Part shown: positions 31,591-41,334 of the stretch, piece after piece
Numbering within the stretch: the stretch's first letter is position 1
Layout of the letters: every line of letters begins with the position of its first letter
Virus record (IMG/VR): IMGVR_UViG_3300042896_000648
Span: 1-64,000 of that record
Length of the DNA: 64,000 nt
Strand: one strand, 5' to 3'
Origin: a virus
Translations under genes and position numbers: made by a program
Notes under the pieces: generated by a model
Seen by the model: the letters and a program-made list of their open reading frames with translations, nothing else
What the model was told of the DNA's origin: nothing
Databases searched by the model: none

Positions 31591-32184
31591 TTATTTATAA
31601 ATTCCTATTTCTTTATTATATTGTTCACGCAATTCTTGTTGTTCACGTTTCGTATACACACTCCCTTGTCTTTGAAGTTCCTTTAGTATCTTATACGCTT
31701 TAGTGTGTGCTATTTTTAGCTCTTCTTTGTCATGTTTAAGGTCTTTATATACTTGTCTTAGGCTTTCTATATACTCGGTGTATTCAGCTCCGTATCTGGC
31801 AGTTAATCCTAATCTATACTCGATTAAGTTTGCGCTTAAATGCATATTACAATGTACGCATTGGCCATGTATGTTATGTAGGTTAAAGGTTATGTTCTTA
31901 TTGTTACCACTAGGGTAGTAATGCCCTCCTTGTTCTACTTTTCCTACACAGCTTATGCAACTCTGCTCTCGGTCTATTAGTCTAGCTATGTGGTTTATAG
32001 TTTTCTGAAGTTTAATCATACAGTCTTTTACTGTTTCTGTTTTTTCTTCAAGTACCTTTTTCCTTTTTTTCCAACCATCGCTGTCTAGTTTTTCACGCCC
32101 TATTTTTATAGCACATTCTATACAGAATTTCTGCGTTGTTTTGTATTGAAAAAACTCCTCGCCACATTCTTTACATTTTTTCAT
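31591..32184 (-). CDS. ninG: NinG/Rap-family recombination endonuclease
   Basis: N-terminal CKEC; LQ...N...R..D..CISC; GHY; NIHGQC.HCN...SAN...YR..L. Confidence 0.88.
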   Translation of the reverse strand: MKKCKECGEEFFQYKTTQKFCIECAIKIGREKLDSDGWKKRKKVLEEKTETVKDCMIKLQKTINHIARLIDREQSCISCVGKVEQGGHYYPSGNNKNITFNLHNIHGQCVHCNMHLSANLIEYRLGLTARYGAEYTEYIESLRQVYKDLKHDKEELKIAHTKAYKILKELQRQGSVYTKREQQELREQYNKEIGIYK

Positions 32185-32351
32185 TTACTTCGAATGTTAA
32201 TAGTTATATTTTCGACAACTTGTGATTTAAGATATTGAAAGTTAGTTTGTTATGATATATTAATACATATAGTAGTTCTAATCAAGCCTTTGCCTCGGCT
32301 CTTTCGGTGTTGGTTGGCACTCAATTTTTAATATTTTTTGCCAACGCTCTT

Positions 32352-32522
32352 TTAAAAGTATGTAACTAATATATAATCATCAGCAGGTACATAAACACCG
32401 TTGTTATATTTGACTTTTCCAAATGCTTTATTTCTAGCATCTAACTCATTTTCTGCATGAACTAATATATATTCAGGTGATGCATATTGCCATGTTTTTA
32501 CTTTAAATAAAAAAGCTTTCAT
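32352..32522 (-). CDS. 56-aa hypothetical protein (not in ORF track)
   Basis: MKAFLFKVKTWQYASPEYILVHAENELDARNKAF... Confidence 0.6.
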   Translation of the reverse strand: MKAFLFKVKTWQYASPEYILVHAENELDARNKAFGKVKYNNGVYVPADDYILVTYF

Positions 32523-32526
32523 ATAA

Positions 32527-32838
32527 TTAGTTTTTTAATTTTTCAATTGCGTTAATAGCTGCTTCATTAGCCTCATTTTCTGTTTTAAAAGAGCCTATTC
32601 GAATATTAACAATGAACCTTTCTTTTGATTTATCATAAAAGCAGTATTTTTTATTTTTATTGGTAGATAATTCAGAAAGATTTTTTTCAACATCTAGTCC
32701 AGCTCTAATTACGGCTTTAGCCATCTTATAAGCACGAATTGCATCTATTTCATTGTCAAATATTCCAAGCAAGTAACTTTCTTTTTTATATCTAATTTGC
32801 CCGTGATACTTATCTTTTCTTTTAAAATATCCATTCAT
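32527..32838 (-). CDS. AP2-like DNA-binding domain protein
   Basis: Y.GQI......LLG.FDNEIDA..AY and IGSFKTENEA repeats. Confidence 0.6.
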   Translation of the reverse strand: MNGYFKRKDKYHGQIRYKKESYLLGIFDNEIDAIRAYKMAKAVIRAGLDVEKNLSELSTNKNKKYCFYDKSKERFIVNIRIGSFKTENEANEAAINAIEKLKN

Positions 32839-32931
32839 AATTCCTGCGAGCTATCGCCCGTTTGCTATTCTAAAAAATATTAAAAATTAAATATTGACTA
32901 TTTACTGGTTAAAAGGCACTAAGCGGCCAGC

Positions 32932-33018
32932 TTAGAACATGGTATTGTGGCAATAAAAAGCCCACACACTAGCCATAAACGCACATTTTTTACTGACCAC
33001 AACACCCCGCCGTTATAG
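32932..33018. mobile_element. attC-like recombination site 1
   Basis: ...AAC and GTT... ends; the bottom strand folds into 10-bp and 9-bp helices separated by one extrahelical T (32996). Confidence 0.65.
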
Positions 33019-33024
33019 GGCATT

Positions 33025-33165
33025 TCAATTACCTATATTAAACCTTGTCCAATTTCCAGAACCGTATTCTTTATTTATTTCAAACTCCCATTTATGTCTA
33101 GGTTCATTGGTGTAAAATGAACCAATAAAAATATTTCCATTATATACTTCTAATTTTGTCCACAT
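33025..33165 (-). CDS. 46-aa cassette-borne ORF MWTKLEVYNGNIFIGSFYTNEPRHKWEFEINKEYGSGNWTRFNIGN (not in ORF track)
   Basis: Fills the space between the two attC-like sites almost exactly. Confidence 0.6.
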   Translation of the reverse strand: MWTKLEVYNGNIFIGSFYTNEPRHKWEFEINKEYGSGNWTRFNIGN

Positions 33166-33178
33166 AACTAAAAACGCC

Positions 33179-33272
33179 CTATAACATGGCATACACAAAA
33201 GCGGGGCGGAACGCTTATCATGTATGTTCGGGTTAAAGAAGCCCCGCCTTCGTGTATGCTTTGACGTTACCT
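33179..33272. mobile_element. attC-like recombination site 2
   Basis: CTATAAC...GTTACCT ends; 19-bp bottom-strand stem with two G.T pairs. Confidence 0.7.
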
Positions 33273-33416
33273 TTTACAATACCACTCACAAATAGTTTCA
33301 CCATCCTTCTTCTTGAAGTCAAACTCACAGTACGCTTGCCAATAGCTAGGCGTTGCCGTCTTTCTATAGCAGTCTTTAAGTTCACACTTTTTGTTGGTAC
33401 ACATTGTTATATCCAT
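33267..33416 (-). CDS. 49-aa Cys-rich phage protein (not in ORF track)
   Basis: MDITMCTNKKCELKDCYRKTA...; its stop codon lies in the GTTA of attC-like site 2. Confidence 0.7.
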   Translation of the reverse strand: MDITMCTNKKCELKDCYRKTATPSYWQAYCEFDFKKKDGETICEWYCKR

Positions 33417-33437
33417 AATTAAAAATATTTTAATGTT

Positions 33438-33770
33438 TTAGTCTTCCATTAAAAAATCGTAAAGGTCTCCGCTTGTAGCTAGGCATATACCCGTCCCATT
33501 GCTTCTGTTCGCTACATCTTTCTTCCACTTCATTCCGTACTCTAGTTCATACATAAAATACATTATCCAATCGCCATCGTCTTGCATAGCATTAATCAGT
33601 AGTTCCATTAAGGCTTGGTAAGTCTTATTATTGTAGCACATTACTGTGGAATCAGGAAACATCTTTTCAAATGATTTTGCAAATTCTTTTTCCGCTCGTT
33701 CTTGTAGTCGTATCTGCTCTATTGTGTAGCAGAATAGGTCTTTTGTGATTTTTAGTTTTCCTTTTTTCAT
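33438..33770 (-). CDS. hypothetical protein
   Basis: DWIMYFMYELEYG motif; coupled to the MTase gene. Confidence 0.75.
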   Translation of the reverse strand: MKKGKLKITKDLFCYTIEQIRLQERAEKEFAKSFEKMFPDSTVMCYNNKTYQALMELLINAMQDDGDWIMYFMYELEYGMKWKKDVANRSNGTGICLATSGDLYDFLMED

Positions 33771-34555
33771 TTTATTTCAGGTATTTGTTCTTTTAAATAT
33801 TTATAAATTTTCCATGTCTGAATTTTAGGTGAAGAAATAAATGGATATAAGTTTTTCCAATCTGTATTTTTCATCACTTCTAAAATCTTTTCTCTATATA
33901 TTTCATTTTTAATAATAATATAGTTTTCTTGGCAAAATGTTCCTATTTCTTTCACTTCCTTACCAATACTTGCACCATATGTATTCATTGCAAAATGAAA
34001 TATTTCAGGTTTTTTATATGTACCACCTCTTCTATATTCACCGACAAATACATCGTTTAGTTTGTAATCTACTGCTTTTGTATTTACGCCATTTTCAGGT
34101 CTTTTATATATATTAAAGCAACATAATAATTTAATGCCACTATATTCAATCAATGGTAATACCTCTGAACAAATCAAATCAAACTCATACATTTGTTGGT
34201 TATTTTGGTATTGGCTTACAGGTAGAATAAAAGAAATATAATCTCCAATTTTACAACATTTTTTATAAAAAGCAACACTTAAAGTATTTCGTGTTCCAAA
34301 AGGCGGATTACCAATGAATAACCTTCCTTTTTTGTAAGGCAATTCAAGTTTTAGAAAATCTTTCTTAATAATACTTTCATGTTCAGGTTCTAAGTCATAA
34401 GCAATACAATTTGGTATTTGTAAACTAAAGCTTCCATTACCTGCACTCGGCTCAATAGTTTCAGTTATTTCTAATCCTAATCCATTTACCAGCTCAATAC
34501 AATATTTCGAAAGTTCTTTTGATGTATAATATTTATCTAAATTTATTTTTGCCAT
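33767..34555 (-). CDS. second DNA amino-methyltransferase
   Basis: DKYYT, IEPSAGNGSF, DFL, IGNPPFG. Confidence 0.85.
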   Translation of the reverse strand: MAKINLDKYYTSKELSKYCIELVNGLGLEITETIEPSAGNGSFSLQIPNCIAYDLEPEHESIIKKDFLKLELPYKKGRLFIGNPPFGTRNTLSVAFYKKCCKIGDYISFILPVSQYQNNQQMYEFDLICSEVLPLIEYSGIKLLCCFNIYKRPENGVNTKAVDYKLNDVFVGEYRRGGTYKKPEIFHFAMNTYGASIGKEVKEIGTFCQENYIIIKNEIYREKILEVMKNTDWKNLYPFISSPKIQTWKIYKYLKEQIPEIK

Positions 34556-34693
34556 CACTTATTTTTCTTCATCTTTATTTTTAAATTTAGGGGCAAGGTC
34601 TTTAATCTCACCCCTATTAAACGGTCACACCAGTAGTCCGGGTGCTCACAAATGTAATTATAAGATTTTACATTTCCAAATATTTTGTTAAAT

Positions 34694-36079
34694 TTATTCC
34701 AAATCTTCTCCCCTATCTCTATCTGCTTGTCGTAGTGCCATTCCTGAGTAGTATGGGTTCTTTTTAATAAACGTTTTCAATCCATGGTATATATCTAGGT
34801 ATCTATTTGCATCACCGAAGTGACTTATATCGCTCGCCATTGCATCTATCTTATCCATCTTACCAAATATATCTACTTTTACACTCCTTATGTCGTTTAG
34901 CAGTCCTGGGCAATTCGTTTCACACACTAGGTAGTTTGTTAGCGATGCTCTGAATAAGTAGTTACTCACTGCTCTGCTACTTTCTTGAAGTAACTTAATT
35001 CTTGGCGGGAATTTTACGTTATAGCATCCTTTATCTTCGAATAGTCTAGCTAGTTCTGCATATCTCTCTGCTGTGCTTCCACCGCCTCCTGCTATATCAC
35101 CTACTATTTCGTATTGCGTATCTGTTCCGAATCTGTTCACTATGTTTTGTACTATTACTTCTAGGTTACTTTGTGCTCCACCTATTCGTTGTTCTCCTAG
35201 TCTCGTGTATGCGTGCTTATCTTCGTTAAAGTAGTCGCTTAAACTGATGTCGCTCTGTATGTCATAGTCGTGGAATCTTTGCCCATACACACAAGTTTCT
35301 GATTGCCCAAAGTCAAAACTTATGGCGAGTGGATAATCACTGAAGAACGGGATAGGTTCTTTCGCTAGGTTATAAAGGAATGAGAATCCGTCTAGGAAAG
35401 GTTTGGTTACTATCACATTGCCCCATTCTCCGTACCGGCATACTCGCCAAGTAGTCTCGTCTATGTCTTTTAGTGCGTCTAGGTTCATATAATCAAACTT
35501 AGTCGCAAATTTATTATCCTCGATAGTGTAGTGAAATCTTTTTGATAGTTCGTGGTATAAACTACCTTCTTCAAAAAACGTATTGTATAGCCAGTGTTTC
35601 TTACTTACAGGGTTAAACATAAACACAAATCGTATGCTGTCATCACCTCGGTATGAGGTTATAATCATCATAAAGTCTTCTAGGCTTAATTGATCTATCT
35701 CGTCAATGATTATGAGTTGGATATTCGCTACTCCTTTTGCTTTATCTTCACTACAAAAGTCAAACAGTAGTCGGTTTCCATTTGGGTAGGTTATGCATTT
35801 CGATAGGTGGTGAAACACACAGTTAATGTACTCGCCTAGTCCTAGCTTTTCTATCATTACCTTAAATGGGCTAAAGGCTTTTTCTTTTAAGTCGGCCTGG
35901 GTTTTTCTGTACCATATTGCATTCATACCGGGGTTATTCCATAGTAGGAAGTTTACAATTTGCATTACAGAATAACTTTTAGAGGAGTTTCTTCCTCCAA
36001 ATCCTATAGTTATAAAGTTGTCTTTTATCGAGTCGCTTAGTTCGTAATAGGCTCTGTTTAGTTGGTTTAATTGATACAT
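34694..36079 (-). CDS. terL: terminase large subunit (PBSX-like)
   Basis: GGRNSSKS Walker A variant, IIIDE Walker B, FNP, T..DN.F, GEWG, FDFG nuclease motif, H..DA.RY. Confidence 0.9.
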   Translation of the reverse strand: MYQLNQLNRAYYELSDSIKDNFITIGFGGRNSSKSYSVMQIVNFLLWNNPGMNAIWYRKTQADLKEKAFSPFKVMIEKLGLGEYINCVFHHLSKCITYPNGNRLLFDFCSEDKAKGVANIQLIIIDEIDQLSLEDFMMIITSYRGDDSIRFVFMFNPVSKKHWLYNTFFEEGSLYHELSKRFHYTIEDNKFATKFDYMNLDALKDIDETTWRVCRYGEWGNVIVTKPFLDGFSFLYNLAKEPIPFFSDYPLAISFDFGQSETCVYGQRFHDYDIQSDISLSDYFNEDKHAYTRLGEQRIGGAQSNLEVIVQNIVNRFGTDTQYEIVGDIAGGGGSTAERYAELARLFEDKGCYNVKFPPRIKLLQESSRAVSNYLFRASLTNYLVCETNCPGLLNDIRSVKVDIFGKMDKIDAMASDISHFGDANRYLDIYHGLKTFIKKNPYYSGMALRQADRDRGEDLE

Positions 36080-36187: not shown

Positions 36188-39100
36188 CTACAAGGTTTGT
36201 TTATACTTATTTTGCAATACGTTTATCTTTTTACTCCTAGTCTGTAGGTAGGTATTAAATCCGCTCTTGTCTACTTGGTTTACTATTTTAGCTTGCCCTT
36301 GTAGTGCTAGTAGGTCTTTTCTTAGTCCTTTTATCTCTTTCTCTAGTTTTGAGTTATCGTTCTGTATTCTATTCACTATATTTGGTGTAATGCCCTTCAA
36401 GTTCACGGTGTCGTAGTTCATAATCTTATTCATTACGTCATTACGGGTCATTCTTACGCCTCCATTACTTCTTGTCATAGTATCCACTTGTTCCTTGCTG
36501 AATATCTGTTCATCAGGGTGCAATATTGCTTGAAATCCTCCCTTGTTGTCTACTCGTCTTCTTGGTGCATTCTCGCTAGTATTGTCAGTTCCTTTATAGA
36601 ATGGTTTTATAGGTTCGGCAGGAAGTTCTTGTTTTGGAGGGTCAGGAATAGCTCTTAATAAAGCATATATAGTTACAGCAGAAGCGGCAGCTATAACCAA
36701 TCCAACTACAAGTGATGTAGCAGCTAGTTTAGCTGTCATTATCGCCACTTGAATACCTATCTCTACTGCCGCTAGTGCTTGCGATACCTTAAGTTCCTGT
36801 ACCTTTAGTTTATATTCAGCATCTATTCTCGATACCTCTAGTTGCCACAGCTTATAATTCTTTTCGTATTCCAATTCTGCATTAGCTTTATCTGTAGCTT
36901 CTTTTTGCGCTAATAAAGCGGCATCTTTAGCTATTTTTGCATCTATTTCTACTTGGTCAAAAGTTGTACGAGAGTTAAATAGGTCTGCTTTTTCTTTTTG
37001 GTCTATCTTTACTATTGCATCAGACGCTTCTTTTACTATTGAATTTACAGTATCCGTTCTTGCAATTACAATTTCTTTTGTTTCGTCTTTTTCAACAAGA
37101 AGTGTATCTACTTTTTGCTTAGTAGTAGCTTTAAGGTCTGCTAAATCAGATGCTTGGCTTGCTTTTGCTTTGTCGCTAATAGCTTTATCTGTCGATGCTA
37201 TGTCATTTGCATAAAGTTTTCTTATTCTAATATCTTCTGCTAATGCATCTATTTTTATTCTATTTATTTCATTTTGTATATCTTGTGTAGCCGCTTGGTT
37301 TATTACAAGGTCTTTAAGTTCTTCTACTTGTGCTTCACGTATTTTTTGTACACCTTCATTTACTATTTTCTCAGCTTCATCACGCCTCCTTACATCTTTT
37401 GCATTTAAGCTTTCATTATACAGTTCTCTAAGTGCAAGTTCTTCATCCCCAGCTTTTTTATTTATCCTCTGTGCCTCTTCATTATTTACGGCGAGTGTTG
37501 TTAATGCTTGCGATGCTCTTGCTAATACCTTATTCCTTTCTGCTGCCGCAGCGGCTTCTATACTAGCATCCTTTTTAAACTGTGCATCTGCTCTTATCTT
37601 TTCTTCCTTGTCAAATCCATCTTGAAGTAGTGCTAGTGCATCATCTTGTGCTTTTTTCTGTACTGCTATTTTTTGGTCATACCCAGTCTTTGTATTCTCA
37701 ATCTGCCTGTTTATTCCATCTAGTTCTAATGCGGTTTGCCTTATAATAGCACTACCTATAACATTAATGGCAAGTTTAGCGTACTCTCCGTATTTTTGTG
37801 CAGATATTGCTATGTGCTCCTCTTTTAGTTTTTTACTAGCTTTATTATACTCCTTTTCAATTTCTTCCAATTCCTTTGAGCCTTTTTTTGCATTCTTTCT
37901 CGCCTCGGCATAAGTTTCCTCTAGCTTTTTTACTGCATCCCTATTTAGCTTTAGATTTTCCCTAGCAGCTTTAACGCTATTTATTACACTTCCAACAGAA
38001 TCTATTAAATTATTAACAAATGCTGCATTTACCTTAGCTGATGCCGTTCCAAAGTTCCCGTAAGCAGTTGCTACACTTTTTAATGCTGTTTGCGTTCCTT
38101 TTAGGAAGTTTTCAATAGTTTTTAATCTAGCTATCTTATTATTTACTTCTATTCTTTCTACCGCATCAAGAAACGCCTTAGTATCTTTCTTTATCCTATC
38201 ATTATTCTTAGTCGTGTTTTCTAGTTTCTTTACTTGGTATTTACCATCTAATTCTACGAGTTTTCCGTAGTGCTTTTGTGTATCTAGTTCTATCTTTAAT
38301 ATCGCACTTTCATTCTCTTTATCTATCGCTTCATTGCTTATTTTTATCGCATCTTCCCTGTCTTTACCTTCTTTTAGTATTAGCTTTATGTTGTCGGCGG
38401 CCTTTTGTTTTTTAAACTCAACAGAGTATTGTAGTGATGTTATTTCATCGCTATTGTTTTGTATTTCAGCAAGAAGTCGTTTTCTTTTTAGGTCATATTC
38501 TAGTTTGTCGTATTTTACGCTTATCTGATACTTTTCTTCTTCGCTTTCAGCTTTAGCTAGTTCACTAGCTTTCATTAGGTCTAGGTTAGCTTCTTCTGCA
38601 TCTTCTACAATGGCTTTCTTAGCTACCTCTAGTTCTTTAAGCAGTTTTATGCGCTCCTTATCAGCTTGCTCAATTGTTTTTAGGTTTTCTTTACTTGCTT
38701 CTTCTACAAGCTTATTTTCCTTTATGGCATATTTTTCTAAAAGCTTAGTTGTTTTTAAAAATACCTCTGCTTTCTTGCCGTATCTTTCATTGGCCTCTAG
38801 TATTTCAGCCTCTCGCTCTTTTTCTAATAGGTCTAGCTTATCTCTTAATCCTTCTTGTCCAAGCTCTTTTAGCAGTTCTATTTCTTTCCTTCTGTTCTCT
38901 AGTTCTTTACTTGGCTTAAATTCCTTCGCACCTTTTCCTGCTCCACCTCCTGCACCAGCCTTTATGTTATCACCCGCAGTACCTTGTATTCCTTTTATAT
39001 ATTCAGTATATTCTTTTTCTATTCTCATTTTGTCTTTTAACCCTTTTGCATTTTCCAGGTTTATATTCTTCTGTATTAATGCATTATCTAGCAAAGACTT

Positions 39101-41314
39101 TGTTTGCTTGTCATTTGTTTCCTGCGTCATTTGAGCATATCTTTGCAAGTTTATTGCACTTATACTTAGGTTTTTTTGGCTTGCTAGTAAGTCTGCTTCA
39201 GCACTTGTTATTTTTTCACCGGTTGTACTTGCTACTTTCCTTCTAGCTTCAAGTACTCTTTGCTGTAGTGAAAGATTCTTGCCGTTCTCTTCATTTACTC
39301 TTTTTAATGCTTCGGCTTCATCATCTAAATATCCACCTCTTCTTTTTAATTGCAAATCCGACTTATAGGCAATATCGCTTAATTCTATTCTTAAATCAAA
39401 TGCTTTGTTTACACTTTTTAATATCCTTTCTAATTGCTCATTCTTGGTGTTTTCAATATCTATTAACCCAAAGTATTCAGGGTACTTGTTCTTTAGTATC
39501 TCCAATTGCACATTCCTAGCTTTCGTGTTATAGGCGAGGTCTTTAATCAATCCTACTTGTGCTGTTATTTGAGCTCTCGATTCCTCTAGTTGTCTACCTT
39601 CTTCACTATGTAGTTTTATAGCTTCTTTTTGCTCTGCATTAAAGTATTGGTATGCTACAAAAGCGGCTGTGATAGCTATTCCTATTACACCCATCGCCAG
39701 GTTTAAGGTTCTGAATGATGTTGCGGCTGCTTGGTTAGCTACTGTTAATGCTACTGTATCTGCCGTTAATCCTACTTTTGTTTTTGCATCTGCCGCAGTT
39801 ATTATAGCTGCATCTATTTCTATTGCATTGCCTTTTAGCATAGCTACACCAAGTGCATTTTGTGCTAGTATTAATTCAGCTTCAGCTGCTACAAGTGCTT
39901 CTTTCGCTGCTACATTAGCTAACATAACTGCACCCATCTGTGCCATTCCTGTAGTTTCTTTAGTATCTAATAATACCTTTCTGCCTTGTATCAGCATGCC
40001 TACAGTGTACGTTCCGTTATATAGGTTTCTTATTATAGTTCCTGTGGCTACTACACTGTTCACTATCGCTTGTTTTGCCGCTATTATTCCTTGTATTATA
40101 GCCGCTGCATTCATAATAGTTTTCCACGCTAACAGTCCTTGTACAAGGCCTGAAAATACTGCTACTGTTCTATTTACTGCATTCTCTGTTCCAAATAGTG
40201 CTGTTACTATATTATTAGTGGCATCAACTATGCTTTTAGCCATGGCACTAAAATTGTCTCCAATGGCCGCTTTAGCAAAGAATATATTATCCTTCAATAT
40301 ATCCATCTTACCTTTTACGGTAGTGGCTAGTATTGTCATTGAGTCCGCAAATACTCCTCCTGCATTTCCTGCATCTAGTATTGCTTTTTTAAACTCCGAA
40401 AATCCTACTTGTCCATTGTGTATTCTTTCTTGTAGTTCCGATACCTTTATTCCTAGGTTGTCGGCAAGTATCGCCATTAAAGGAAATCCCGTTTCAGCTA
40501 TTTGCCTTACCTCTGTACCCATTAGCCTTCCTGCGGCTTGTACTTGGGTAAAAGCGTACGTAAGTCGCTCTAGCTTATCACCGCCTCCCAATGCACTAGC
40601 CGAGTTTCCAAGGCTTCTTAGTGTTGGTATTACGTCTCTTGATATTACTTGTGACGAAAGCCCCACTGCTTTCATTGAGCCTACAAGTTGGTTTACACCT
40701 TTTATAGTTTCTTCAAACGTAAATGGGGTTTCTGTAGTAAATTGTTGGAATTGTGCAAAAAGTGATTTTCCACTTACATTTCCTAGTAAGTTTCCTAGTG
40801 TAAGTTTTAGTGCCTCTACTTTACTTTGCGCATCAAATATTGACCTTGCAAAATCTGTAACACCAGTAACTCCAAGTGCCACTCCAAATGTTGTTAGAAT
40901 ACCACTAACTTTATTTAGCGATATTCCAAAATCTTGTGTACTTTTAGTCTTCGCTACATTGTCTTTTATTACTTGGTCTTTAGCGAGCTTACTAGCCGTT
41001 ATTTGTGCTAGTGAGGCTTGTTTAGCGGCAGACTCTTCAGCTATTGCGGTTGCTCTAGCGGTGGCTATTTCCGCTTTTGAATTGGCTTCTTTATTTCTCC
41101 TTCTATTGTCAGACCGAATTATTGACCTATTTAAAGCAGTGTCTTCCAAGTTAGCTAGGTTAGCTATCGAGGTTTTCTGTTGCTCATACAAGTCTTTATA
41201 TGACTTAGCTACAACCTTTAGGTCGGCAGTCATAGCCTTTAAAGTACCTGTTACTTTTAATAAATCATCTAGGTTCTTTACTTGTATTTCAAAGTAAACG
41301 GTTTCATTAGCCAT
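36188..41314 (-). CDS. tail tape measure protein
   Basis: About 1700 aa, Ala/Lys-rich coiled coil; TPF...LG..ASALG...L.YAF.QV.A.GRL.G.E..Q..E.G.P tape-measure N-domain. Confidence 0.92.
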   Translation of the reverse strand: MANETVYFEIQVKNLDDLLKVTGTLKAMTADLKVVAKSYKDLYEQQKTSIANLANLEDTALNRSIIRSDNRRRNKEANSKAEIATARATAIAEESAAKQASLAQITASKLAKDQVIKDNVAKTKSTQDFGISLNKVSGILTTFGVALGVTGVTDFARSIFDAQSKVEALKLTLGNLLGNVSGKSLFAQFQQFTTETPFTFEETIKGVNQLVGSMKAVGLSSQVISRDVIPTLRSLGNSASALGGGDKLERLTYAFTQVQAAGRLMGTEVRQIAETGFPLMAILADNLGIKVSELQERIHNGQVGFSEFKKAILDAGNAGGVFADSMTILATTVKGKMDILKDNIFFAKAAIGDNFSAMAKSIVDATNNIVTALFGTENAVNRTVAVFSGLVQGLLAWKTIMNAAAIIQGIIAAKQAIVNSVVATGTIIRNLYNGTYTVGMLIQGRKVLLDTKETTGMAQMGAVMLANVAAKEALVAAEAELILAQNALGVAMLKGNAIEIDAAIITAADAKTKVGLTADTVALTVANQAAATSFRTLNLAMGVIGIAITAAFVAYQYFNAEQKEAIKLHSEEGRQLEESRAQITAQVGLIKDLAYNTKARNVQLEILKNKYPEYFGLIDIENTKNEQLERILKSVNKAFDLRIELSDIAYKSDLQLKRRGGYLDDEAEALKRVNEENGKNLSLQQRVLEARRKVASTTGEKITSAEADLLASQKNLSISAINLQRYAQMTQETNDKQTKSLLDNALIQKNINLENAKGLKDKMRIEKEYTEYIKGIQGTAGDNIKAGAGGGAGKGAKEFKPSKELENRRKEIELLKELGQEGLRDKLDLLEKEREAEILEANERYGKKAEVFLKTTKLLEKYAIKENKLVEEASKENLKTIEQADKERIKLLKELEVAKKAIVEDAEEANLDLMKASELAKAESEEEKYQISVKYDKLEYDLKRKRLLAEIQNNSDEITSLQYSVEFKKQKAADNIKLILKEGKDREDAIKISNEAIDKENESAILKIELDTQKHYGKLVELDGKYQVKKLENTTKNNDRIKKDTKAFLDAVERIEVNNKIARLKTIENFLKGTQTALKSVATAYGNFGTASAKVNAAFVNNLIDSVGSVINSVKAARENLKLNRDAVKKLEETYAEARKNAKKGSKELEEIEKEYNKASKKLKEEHIAISAQKYGEYAKLAINVIGSAIIRQTALELDGINRQIENTKTGYDQKIAVQKKAQDDALALLQDGFDKEEKIRADAQFKKDASIEAAAAAERNKVLARASQALTTLAVNNEEAQRINKKAGDEELALRELYNESLNAKDVRRRDEAEKIVNEGVQKIREAQVEELKDLVINQAATQDIQNEINRIKIDALAEDIRIRKLYANDIASTDKAISDKAKASQASDLADLKATTKQKVDTLLVEKDETKEIVIARTDTVNSIVKEASDAIVKIDQKEKADLFNSRTTFDQVEIDAKIAKDAALLAQKEATDKANAELEYEKNYKLWQLEVSRIDAEYKLKVQELKVSQALAAVEIGIQVAIMTAKLAATSLVVGLVIAAASAVTIYALLRAIPDPPKQELPAEPIKPFYKGTDNTSENAPRRRVDNKGGFQAILHPDEQIFSKEQVDTMTRSNGGVRMTRNDVMNKIMNYDTVNLKGITPNIVNRIQNDNSKLEKEIKGLRKDLLALQGQAKIVNQVDKSGFNTYLQTRSKKINVLQNKYKQTL

Positions 41315-41334
41315 ATTCAATAGACCTATTGGCC

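Follow-up and report, generated by a model that had tools for sequence, protein, structure and literature searches.

Integrons are the textbook gene-capture machine of bacteria, and to our knowledge there are hardly any records of them in Bacteroidota and few in phages. Qi et al. (2023, PMC9892861) described 17 attC clusters in phages, virulent ones included, with one in the Polaribacter phage P12002L. In three virulent phages they tested six sites, of which five underwent IntI1-dependent recombination and one, P12002L_attC1, did not; the phage attC cassettes are often DNA methylases. A second relevant system is rAID-1 of Bacteroidales. It is defined by an XerD-like recombinase that lies 5', shares at least 44% identity with BF9343_RS08045 and is followed by low-GC genes in the same direction, and its repeats were called reminiscent of integrons by Ross et al. 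2019 (bioRxiv 10.1101/471110). Here we analysed positions 1 to 64,000 of the IMG/VR record IMGVR_UViG_3300042896_000648 (the window, meaning the whole stretch of DNA under study), which covers the initial 64 kb of a complete phage genome of 78,548 bp with direct terminal repeats and 33% GC; the carrier is a lake-water Flavobacterium-type phage. The window contains two hairpins that we regard as probable recombination sites of an integron-like system of Bacteroidota phages, delimiting a mobile cassette at 33013-33266. Our search of the literature on integrons and integron-like systems in phages or Flavobacterium returned no paper describing the system as defined here.

The locus comprises the following features, where ORF stands for open reading frame, and R1 and R2 are covariance models of the hairpin family:

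32929-33021, minus strand: site 1, a diverged attC-like hairpin, recognised by its architecture and a 10/10 end match with site 2.
33013-33266, minus strand: a complete 254-bp cassette, bounded by the 10/10 end rule and by breakpoints in related loci.
33025-33165, minus strand: the cargo, a 46-aa ORF (MWTKLEVYNGN...), the sole ORF of the 254-bp unit.
33176-33275, minus strand: site 2, an attC-like hairpin, recognised by sequence, fold and the family models R1 and R2.

Read on the minus strand, the cassette consists of C, the site 2 hairpin, GTTATAGGGC, the 46-aa ORF and GCCCTATAA. Its two ends are complementary, in that GTTATAGGGC (33012-33021, plus strand) is the exact reverse complement of GCCCTATAAC (33176-33185, plus strand) at 10/10 positions. 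The original prediction, drawn from the letters of the window by a model, had pointed to this complementarity between successive sites, to a 254-bp unit with one 46-aa ORF and to an upstream Cys-rich gene that stops within the crossover. We indeed found each of these in the sequence, the stop of the Cys-rich gene overlapping the TAAC of site 2.

Both sites share one architecture, even though their overall sequences are not alike. On the minus strand, site 2 reads AAAAGGTAA|C (33275-33266; AAC-side end AAAAGGTAAC), followed by the spacer GTCAAA, a stem of two 19-nt arms (33259-33241 and 33207-33189) enclosing a 33-nt loop, the spacer CAT on the GTT side and GTTATAGGGC (33185-33176). Site 1 reads GCCCTATAA|C (33021-33012; AAC-side end GCCCTATAAC), followed by the spacer GGCGG, a stem of 10 plus 9-10 bp in which a single T bulges out, a loop of 25 nt, the spacer AT on the GTT side and GTTCTAAGCT (32938-32929). 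The spacers between core and stem are unpaired in both sites, with 5-6 nt on the AAC side and 2-3 nt on the GTT side, and AACATGG stands at the left end of each element on the plus strand, at 32936 in site 1 and at 33183 in site 2. When folded as DNA, the minus strand reached -19.0 kcal/mol as against -16.4 on the plus strand for site 2, and -10.7 as against -7.7 for site 1, because the G.T pairs of the minus strand are A.C mismatches on the plus strand. The left-end motif, the single extrahelical T of site 1, the unpaired spacers and the better fold of the bottom strand, all reported by the original prediction, are thus present. Site 2 is also the most stable 100-nt window of the 78,548-bp genome when folded as RNA (-38.8 versus a mean of -12.7, standard deviation 5.2), and site 1 ranks ninth in fold stability among the 100-nt windows of the genome.

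Queries with the 19-nt arm, and then with the 3'-end pattern, recovered the ~98-nt site 2 element nearly unchanged in at least 26 distinct contigs. The 26 distinct versions came from IMG/VR contigs, two contigs of Flavobacterium/Flavobacteriaceae metagenome-assembled genomes and 22 metagenome contigs; two further loci with 60% GC (L004 and L006) were dropped as chance matches to the 19-mer. These elements sit in unrelated flanks of 28-51% GC and lie on the coding strand in every case. For most pairs of loci, the common stretch is limited to the part from AAC through GTTATAGGGCGTT, and the element stops 10-25 nt short of the next ATG. The public lake-water metagenome run that contains the whole stretch, and from which it probably stems, also yielded a second contig (matching window positions 33169-33206) that carries a site-2-type element with other flanks, which places the element in more than one phage of that community; the loose end of this contig matches a downstream gene of the type seen in locus L007.

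The covariance model R1, built from the site 2 family only, detected diverged copies in the same loci and on the same strand, so that the elements form arrays, and the broader model R2 was built from these array elements. Site 2 scores 125 bits against R1 and 94.6 bits against R2. On the coding strand, the family plan is a cassette-specific end of 6-7 nt, TAA|C (the bar marks the breakpoint described below), an unpaired spacer of 4-6 nt, a stem of ~20 bp with G.T wobbles, a variable loop, the returning stem, a spacer of 1-3 nt and GTTA with a second cassette-specific end of 6-7 nt. The sites measure 51-199 nt, with a median of 112. Hairpin stems were informative only at 11-13 pairs or more, and a loose hairpin scan (foot of at least 9 pairs) gave 21 matches versus 16-18 in shuffled sequence, which is no better. 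With DNA parameters, 178 of 187 elements fold more stably on the hairpin strand, and the longest ORF lies on that strand in 112 of 120 cassettes, the hairpin being 5' of its ORF. This agrees with the earlier claim that the cargo is encoded on the better-folding strand, opposite to classical cassettes.

The end complementarity seen at our locus is a rule of the family. Across 120 consecutive junctions in 56 arrays, the 7 nt after the GTT of one site complement the 7 nt before the AAC of the next site exactly in 52 cases (43%) and at six or more of seven positions in 63%; an exact match between a site's own two ends occurs in 0.5%, and between random site pairs in 0.7%. The end pairs themselves vary across arrays, for example GTTAGCAGTA/TACTGCTAAC, GTTAGCCGCA/TGCGGCTAAC and GTTATGTATA/TATACATAAC. 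Such a rule matches integron cassettes, in which a circular cassette is opened inside a paired core. Being symmetric, it does not reveal whether the hairpin before or the one after an ORF moves with it, and for this we compared loci with one another. L003, L015 and L009 have one ORF module in common but diverge after ...TATAAC|G, where two of them go on with unrelated hairpins and one has no hairpin, and in L010 and L032 a 99.8%-identical module ends at GCCCTATAACGTT with different hairpins after it. The upstream hairpin is kept with the ORF in both sets; one further informative pair agrees with this direction of linkage and none disagrees. These comparisons place the breakpoint at TAA|C on the coding strand, resolved to within the invariant TAAC, which corresponds to G|TT on the plus strand of the window, the crossover that had been proposed originally. 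A cassette is then hairpin + GTTAnnnnnn + ORF + nnnnnnTAA, and this definition gives exactly 33013-33266. A search of 134 cassettes for common members returned two or three pairs only, too few for statistics.

The arrays are linked to a recombinase gene. One phage contig (G003) carries a small tyrosine recombinase ~1.1 kb beyond its array, split into ORFs of 90 and 169 aa, and L007 carries an N-terminal remnant of such a gene. With the 169-aa part as query, IMG/VR yielded 221 relatives at 63-90% identity, from which 80 loci (902 kb) were taken. In these 80 viral loci our scan found 201 hairpins, nearly all of them upstream of the recombinase and on its strand, which the recombinase gene fixes independently of the fold; no hairpin on the recombinase's strand was found downstream of the gene in the 80 loci. 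R1 detected 41 elements in the 54 recombinase loci searched with it, all on the recombinase's strand, and the densest arrays hold up to ten sites in 7 kb with the end rule unbroken over long stretches. In 22 distinct loci, a conserved junction nnnnnnTAAC|TATTATATAT without a hairpin lies ~30-60 nt before the recombinase start codon. The last cassette runs into TATTATATAT after TAAC, which means that cassettes end in TAA|C, and we take this junction to be an attI-like entry site. Together with the end rule across 56 arrays, this linkage to a recombinase and an attI-like junction bears out the central proposal of the original prediction, that attC-like folded sites bound one complete cassette. 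Some of the carriers, at least, look viral, with a portal-like gene near the G003 recombinase and a phage-type helicase near that of L092.

Intact array recombinases have 265-269 aa, one full-length example being the 268-aa ORF at 6704-7507 of L092. Their best profile is XerA NF040815 ('site-specific tyrosine recombinase/integron integrase'), at 176 bits with a cut-off of 220, and they reach 147-151 bits in two stretches against TIGR02249 (integron integrase), for which the cut-off is 265. The best solved structure is an archaeal XerC/XerA-like protein (4a8e), and the alignment to VchIntIA (IntI4, 2a3v) covers residues 20-179 only, stopping approximately where, as we assume, the IntI-specific insertion lies. 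The array enzyme is thus closely related to the Xer/IntI group and lacks the IntI-defining segment. None of 301 Flavobacteriaceae genomes holds a homologue more than 52% identical to the phage-type recombinase; the best relatives are 38-52% identical and mostly are open frames of ~350-400 aa. Several of them have nearby CAAC/GTTG-type hairpins in convergent orientation that obey the end rule, and the hosts thus seem to have a related but distinct, chromosomal version of the system. In L134, L137, L138 and L141 of Flavobacteriaceae, the tyrosine recombinases are longer (~375-390 aa) and share 42-49% identity with the phage type; CAAC/GTTG hairpins lie no more than 1.5 kb from the 3' end of the gene on the opposite strand, with ends such as GTTATCTTTA/TAAAGATAAC.

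By analogy with attC, the coding strand of each site would fold as single-stranded DNA, and a tyrosine recombinase would cut it at TAA|C; the partner in the exchange would be a second hairpin or the attI-like TAAC|TATTATATAT beside a recombinase gene. The two ends of a cassette would be complementary because they pair in the excised circle. For the cassette at 33013-33266, the junction of the 254-bp circle would read ...GCCCTATAA|C-GTCAAAGC..., and site 2 would gain a perfect 10-bp GCCCTATAAC/GTTATAGGGC box upon circularisation. The phage carries two sites here and a third at 73.8 kb and has no recombinase, so the enzyme must come from outside; if sites 1 and 2 are active at present, movement in this phage would need an enzyme from a co-infecting phage or from the host. 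It had been proposed that a host integrase, or one encoded beyond the window, serves the sites. The external source stands, since the genome lacks a tyrosine recombinase, and the identity of the enzyme as IntI does not, since the array-linked recombinase falls below the TIGR02249 cut-off. The original prediction had recommended a search for IntI in the rest of the genome and in likely hosts; the genome has no PF00589 match, and in the 301 Flavobacteriaceae genomes the best relatives of the array recombinase are 38-52% identical. As an outpost without a recombinase, the locus corresponds to a CALIN, a cluster of attC sites that has no integrase.

The third site shows a further property of the family:

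73834-73976 of the genome, outside the window, plus strand: third family site (locus L156), 41.3 bits against R2.

It reads GGTGAATAAC-GGAAC-19-bp stem...-T-GTTATGCAAC, and an ORF begins in its loop and runs through the 3' arm, as is also the case in several array elements of L007, L017 and L019. Three of these (L007 12894-13033, L017 1170-1300 and L019 7155-7292) have an ORF with its start in the loop, so that both the 3' arm and the GTTA core are translated, and the ORFs encode similar stretches (..QLNKHAVSG.., ..QLNILAVRR.., ..ALSIANVSG..). In such hairpins, the recombination site overlaps coding sequence.

Several observations weigh against recombination at this locus or against the generality of its rules. 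The complete genome of 78,548 bp has no PF00589 match, that is, no tyrosine recombinase, and no recombination event was seen for sites 1 and 2. The 46-aa ORF has four homologues at 65-89% identity, and those in three other viral contigs lack flanking hairpins, which means that the gene exists both inside and outside cassette form; the cassette 33013-33266 was not found in cassette form elsewhere. The AAC-side end of site 2, AAAAGGTAAC, has no GTTACCTTTT partner or hairpin upstream of the Cys-rich gene, and the sole other GTTACCTTT in the genome is at 64465, ~31 kb from site 2; the Cys-rich ORF accordingly looks like phage backbone and not like a cassette. Likewise, no partner for GTTCTAAGCT, the end of site 1 on its GTT side, occurs in the genome. 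Site 1 scores a weak 18.1 bits against R2 (E 0.008, 6-kb search, filters off), so that its family membership rests on architecture and the 10/10 end match with site 2. At the level of the family, the direction of hairpin-ORF linkage relies on three or four informative comparisons, and the strand bias is partly built in, since the hairpin scan admitted G.T pairs and asymmetric spacers. Moreover, the hairpins directly precede ORFs and are on the strand that is transcribed, where G.U pairs favour RNA as well, and they may have a transcript-level role, possibly coexisting with recombination. Logan contigs from the lake-water run, of which one has the stretch intact and none joins across the cassette, are blind to rare excision and hence neutral. 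The simplest reading of the locus is a short, possibly decaying, two-site insertion in a phage backbone with one intact cassette, in which site 1 is a degenerate family member. At its outer margin lies one more element:

32910-32935, minus strand: a terminator-like small hairpin, CTAAGC-TGGCC-GCTTAG with a T-rich tail, recognised by sequence.

It overlaps the GTT-side end of site 1, where GTTCTAAGCT immediately folds back on GCTTAG, and it closes the mini-array ahead of an AP2-like gene. A search of IMG/VR with the arm of site 1 gave no exact match.

A purely transcript-level function, in which the hairpins are terminators, RNA processing sites or 5'-leaders and the likeness to cassettes is incidental, draws on the same observations: the hairpins are on the transcribed strand, G.U pairs stabilise them as RNA (z-score -4.6 for site 2), the elements end 10-25 nt before the next start codon and the terminator-like hairpin follows site 1. 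In addition, attC sites themselves are thought to be weak terminators (PMC9892861). An RNA role, however, leaves unexplained why ends are complementary across 100-1500 nt of unrelated cargo, why homology breaks at TAA|C, why the arrays always lie on one side of a tyrosine recombinase, and why the last cassette ends in TAAC, hairpin-free, at a conserved junction. We therefore hold an exclusive RNA function to be quite unlikely. Other non-autonomous transposable hairpins, namely miniature inverted-repeat transposable elements (MITE), repetitive extragenic palindromes with their transposases (REP/RAYT) or ends of IS200/IS605 type, would account for the behaviour of site 2 as a mobile ~98-nt unit in unrelated flanks, and IS200/IS605 ends are imperfect hairpins that are processed as single strands, too. 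In place of direct target duplications, of which none were seen, neighbouring elements have complementary ends; a tyrosine recombinase is consistently adjacent, and no Y1/HUH gene was seen beside the arrays, as far as can be told without a dedicated Y1 transposase search. The fold rank and the end-rule statistics rule out that two palindromes stand together by chance, and this group of explanations is extremely unlikely as a whole.

A further reading takes the hairpins for classical attC sites, i.e. a CALIN recombined by a bona fide host IntI. Features in line with attC logic are the AAC...GTT cores with their unpaired spacer, a bulged base and the end rule of the cassettes. Precedents exist as well, since attC clusters are known in virulent phages, a Polaribacter phage among them, with IntI1 active on five of six phage sites (PMC9892861). 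The array-linked enzyme, on the other hand, has no IntI insertion, reaches 151 bits where the TIGR02249 cut-off is 265 and aligns with IntI4 (2a3v) over residues 20-179 only, and its best relatives in 301 Flavobacteriaceae genomes are 38-52% identical. The asymmetric spacer (4-6 versus 1-3 nt) and the inverted cargo in 112 of 120 cassettes also disfavour classical attC, and no Rfam family matched the sites, with the limit that the presence of an attC model in Rfam is not established. The most direct comparison comes from P12002L_attC1, which we placed in NC_028924 through the primer table of PMC9892861, between two methylase genes and on their coding strand. It has exactly the family architecture (TGCTAAC-GGCTAC-stem...stem-AT-TGTTAGGC) and is the one site that IntI1 did not recombine (PMC9892861); P12002L, a Flavobacteriaceae phage, contains several more family-type hairpins. 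On this evidence, a classical CALIN served by IntI is very unlikely, and membership in the classical integrons, as the original prediction implied, does not hold. Taken together, these results favour an integron-like system of Bacteroidota phages over a classical integron, because the array-linked recombinases of the family are not of IntI type and the genome encodes no such integrase, because the cargo orientation is inverted, and because the sole IntI1 datum for such a site is negative.

All genes around the locus are on the minus strand:

31591-32184, minus strand: NinG.
32527-32838, minus strand: AP2-like 103-aa ORF, just downstream of site 1.
33267-33416, minus strand: Cys-rich 49-aa ORF, directly upstream of the cassette, its stop TAA inside the TAAC core of site 2.
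33438-33770, minus strand: 110-aa ORF.
33767-34558, minus strand: 263-aa ORF.
34694-36079, minus strand: TerL.

The terminase gene is adjoined by a 1710-aa ORF at 36188-41320 on the minus strand. The AP2-like 103-aa protein gave sub-cut-off matches to the AP2 and integrase Arm DNA-binding domains (E 0.006-0.01) and may be a small DNA-binding protein. A 377-nt contig from a freshwater run (X5) joins 33770 straight to 34574 and skips 803 bp, and thus represents a relative of the phage without exactly the gene of the 263-aa ORF; no family hairpin is present at the boundaries of this gap. A 255-nt contig from a freshwater run covers 32743-33001. A blastn search of 32300-34600 against GenBank phages gave no match, and a terminase search of IMG/VR revealed no close relative of the phage. 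The phage genome contains no recombinase-adjacent TAAC|TATTATATAT junction, and neither tRNA nor transfer-messenger RNA genes were found. Across the window, none of the Rfam families scored at or above its gathering threshold, and at E values up to 10 the segment 32700-33500 gave only two chance matches, HYMAI and MIR5020.

On a broader scale, we tentatively propose, at somewhat less than an even chance in our estimate, that Bacteroidota phages run an integron class of their own. In this proposal, a short Xer-like recombinase, encoded by some phages and active in trans on others during co-infection, would capture and shuffle single-gene cassettes, the 5' hairpin would double as recombination site and as leader or expression signal, and recombinase-less phages would be clients of a communal gene pool that includes anti-restriction methylases. 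If recombination is confirmed, integron-type chemistry needs no IntI-specific domain, part of the small-gene mosaicism in aquatic Flavobacterium-type phages has a concrete mechanism, and the accessory genes of phages can be mined one cassette at a time. The yield of the window itself is modest, with one 254-bp cassette, a 46-aa gene and no enzyme.

Compared with classical integrons, among which the sedentary chromosomal ones are particularly close, the phage family has similar imperfect hairpins with AAC/GTT cores (here TAAC/GTTA), an unpaired spacer, bulged bases and a variable loop, and the two ends of a cassette are likewise complementary with the crossover inside the core. In both, the array adjoins a tyrosine recombinase with a distinct junction site beside its gene, and the position and polarity of the recombinase relative to the polarity of the sites are those of intI to attC. 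The enzyme-less solo arrays of the phage family have their counterpart in CALINs. The differences concern the enzyme, the cargo and the carriers. Whereas integron integrases possess the IntI insertion, the family enzyme of 265-269 aa is nearest to XerA, lacks this insertion and falls below the IntI cut-offs. Classical cargo is on the top strand with attC 3' of the ORF and the promoter Pc at attI; in the family, by contrast, the strand that folds ('bottom-like') also encodes the cargo, each ORF has its hairpin on the 5' side, and the cassettes are co-directional with the recombinase, so that the arrays are transcribed towards it. The family spacers are asymmetric, with 4-6 nt versus 1-3 nt, unlike classical sites; the spacers of attCaadA7 measure 5/5. 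The hosts of the family are Bacteroidota phages.

Qi et al. 2023 (PMC9892861) took their phage sites for classical attC, assayed them with IntI1 and described no Xer-like recombinase, attI-like junction or inverted cargo rule. With rAID-1, as far as layout is compared, the phage family shares the occurrence in Bacteroidota, an XerD-like recombinase beside co-directional small low-GC genes and repetitive intergenic sequences; rAID-1 differs in that its recombinase is 5' of the array, its cargo is toxin-immunity genes and its carriers are gut-bacterial chromosomes, whereas the recombinase of the phage family is 3'. The system thus combines the logic of integrons, with folded single-strand sites, complementary cassette ends and an integrase-adjacent entry site as we read them, with a simpler recombinase, reversed cargo and mainly viral carriers.

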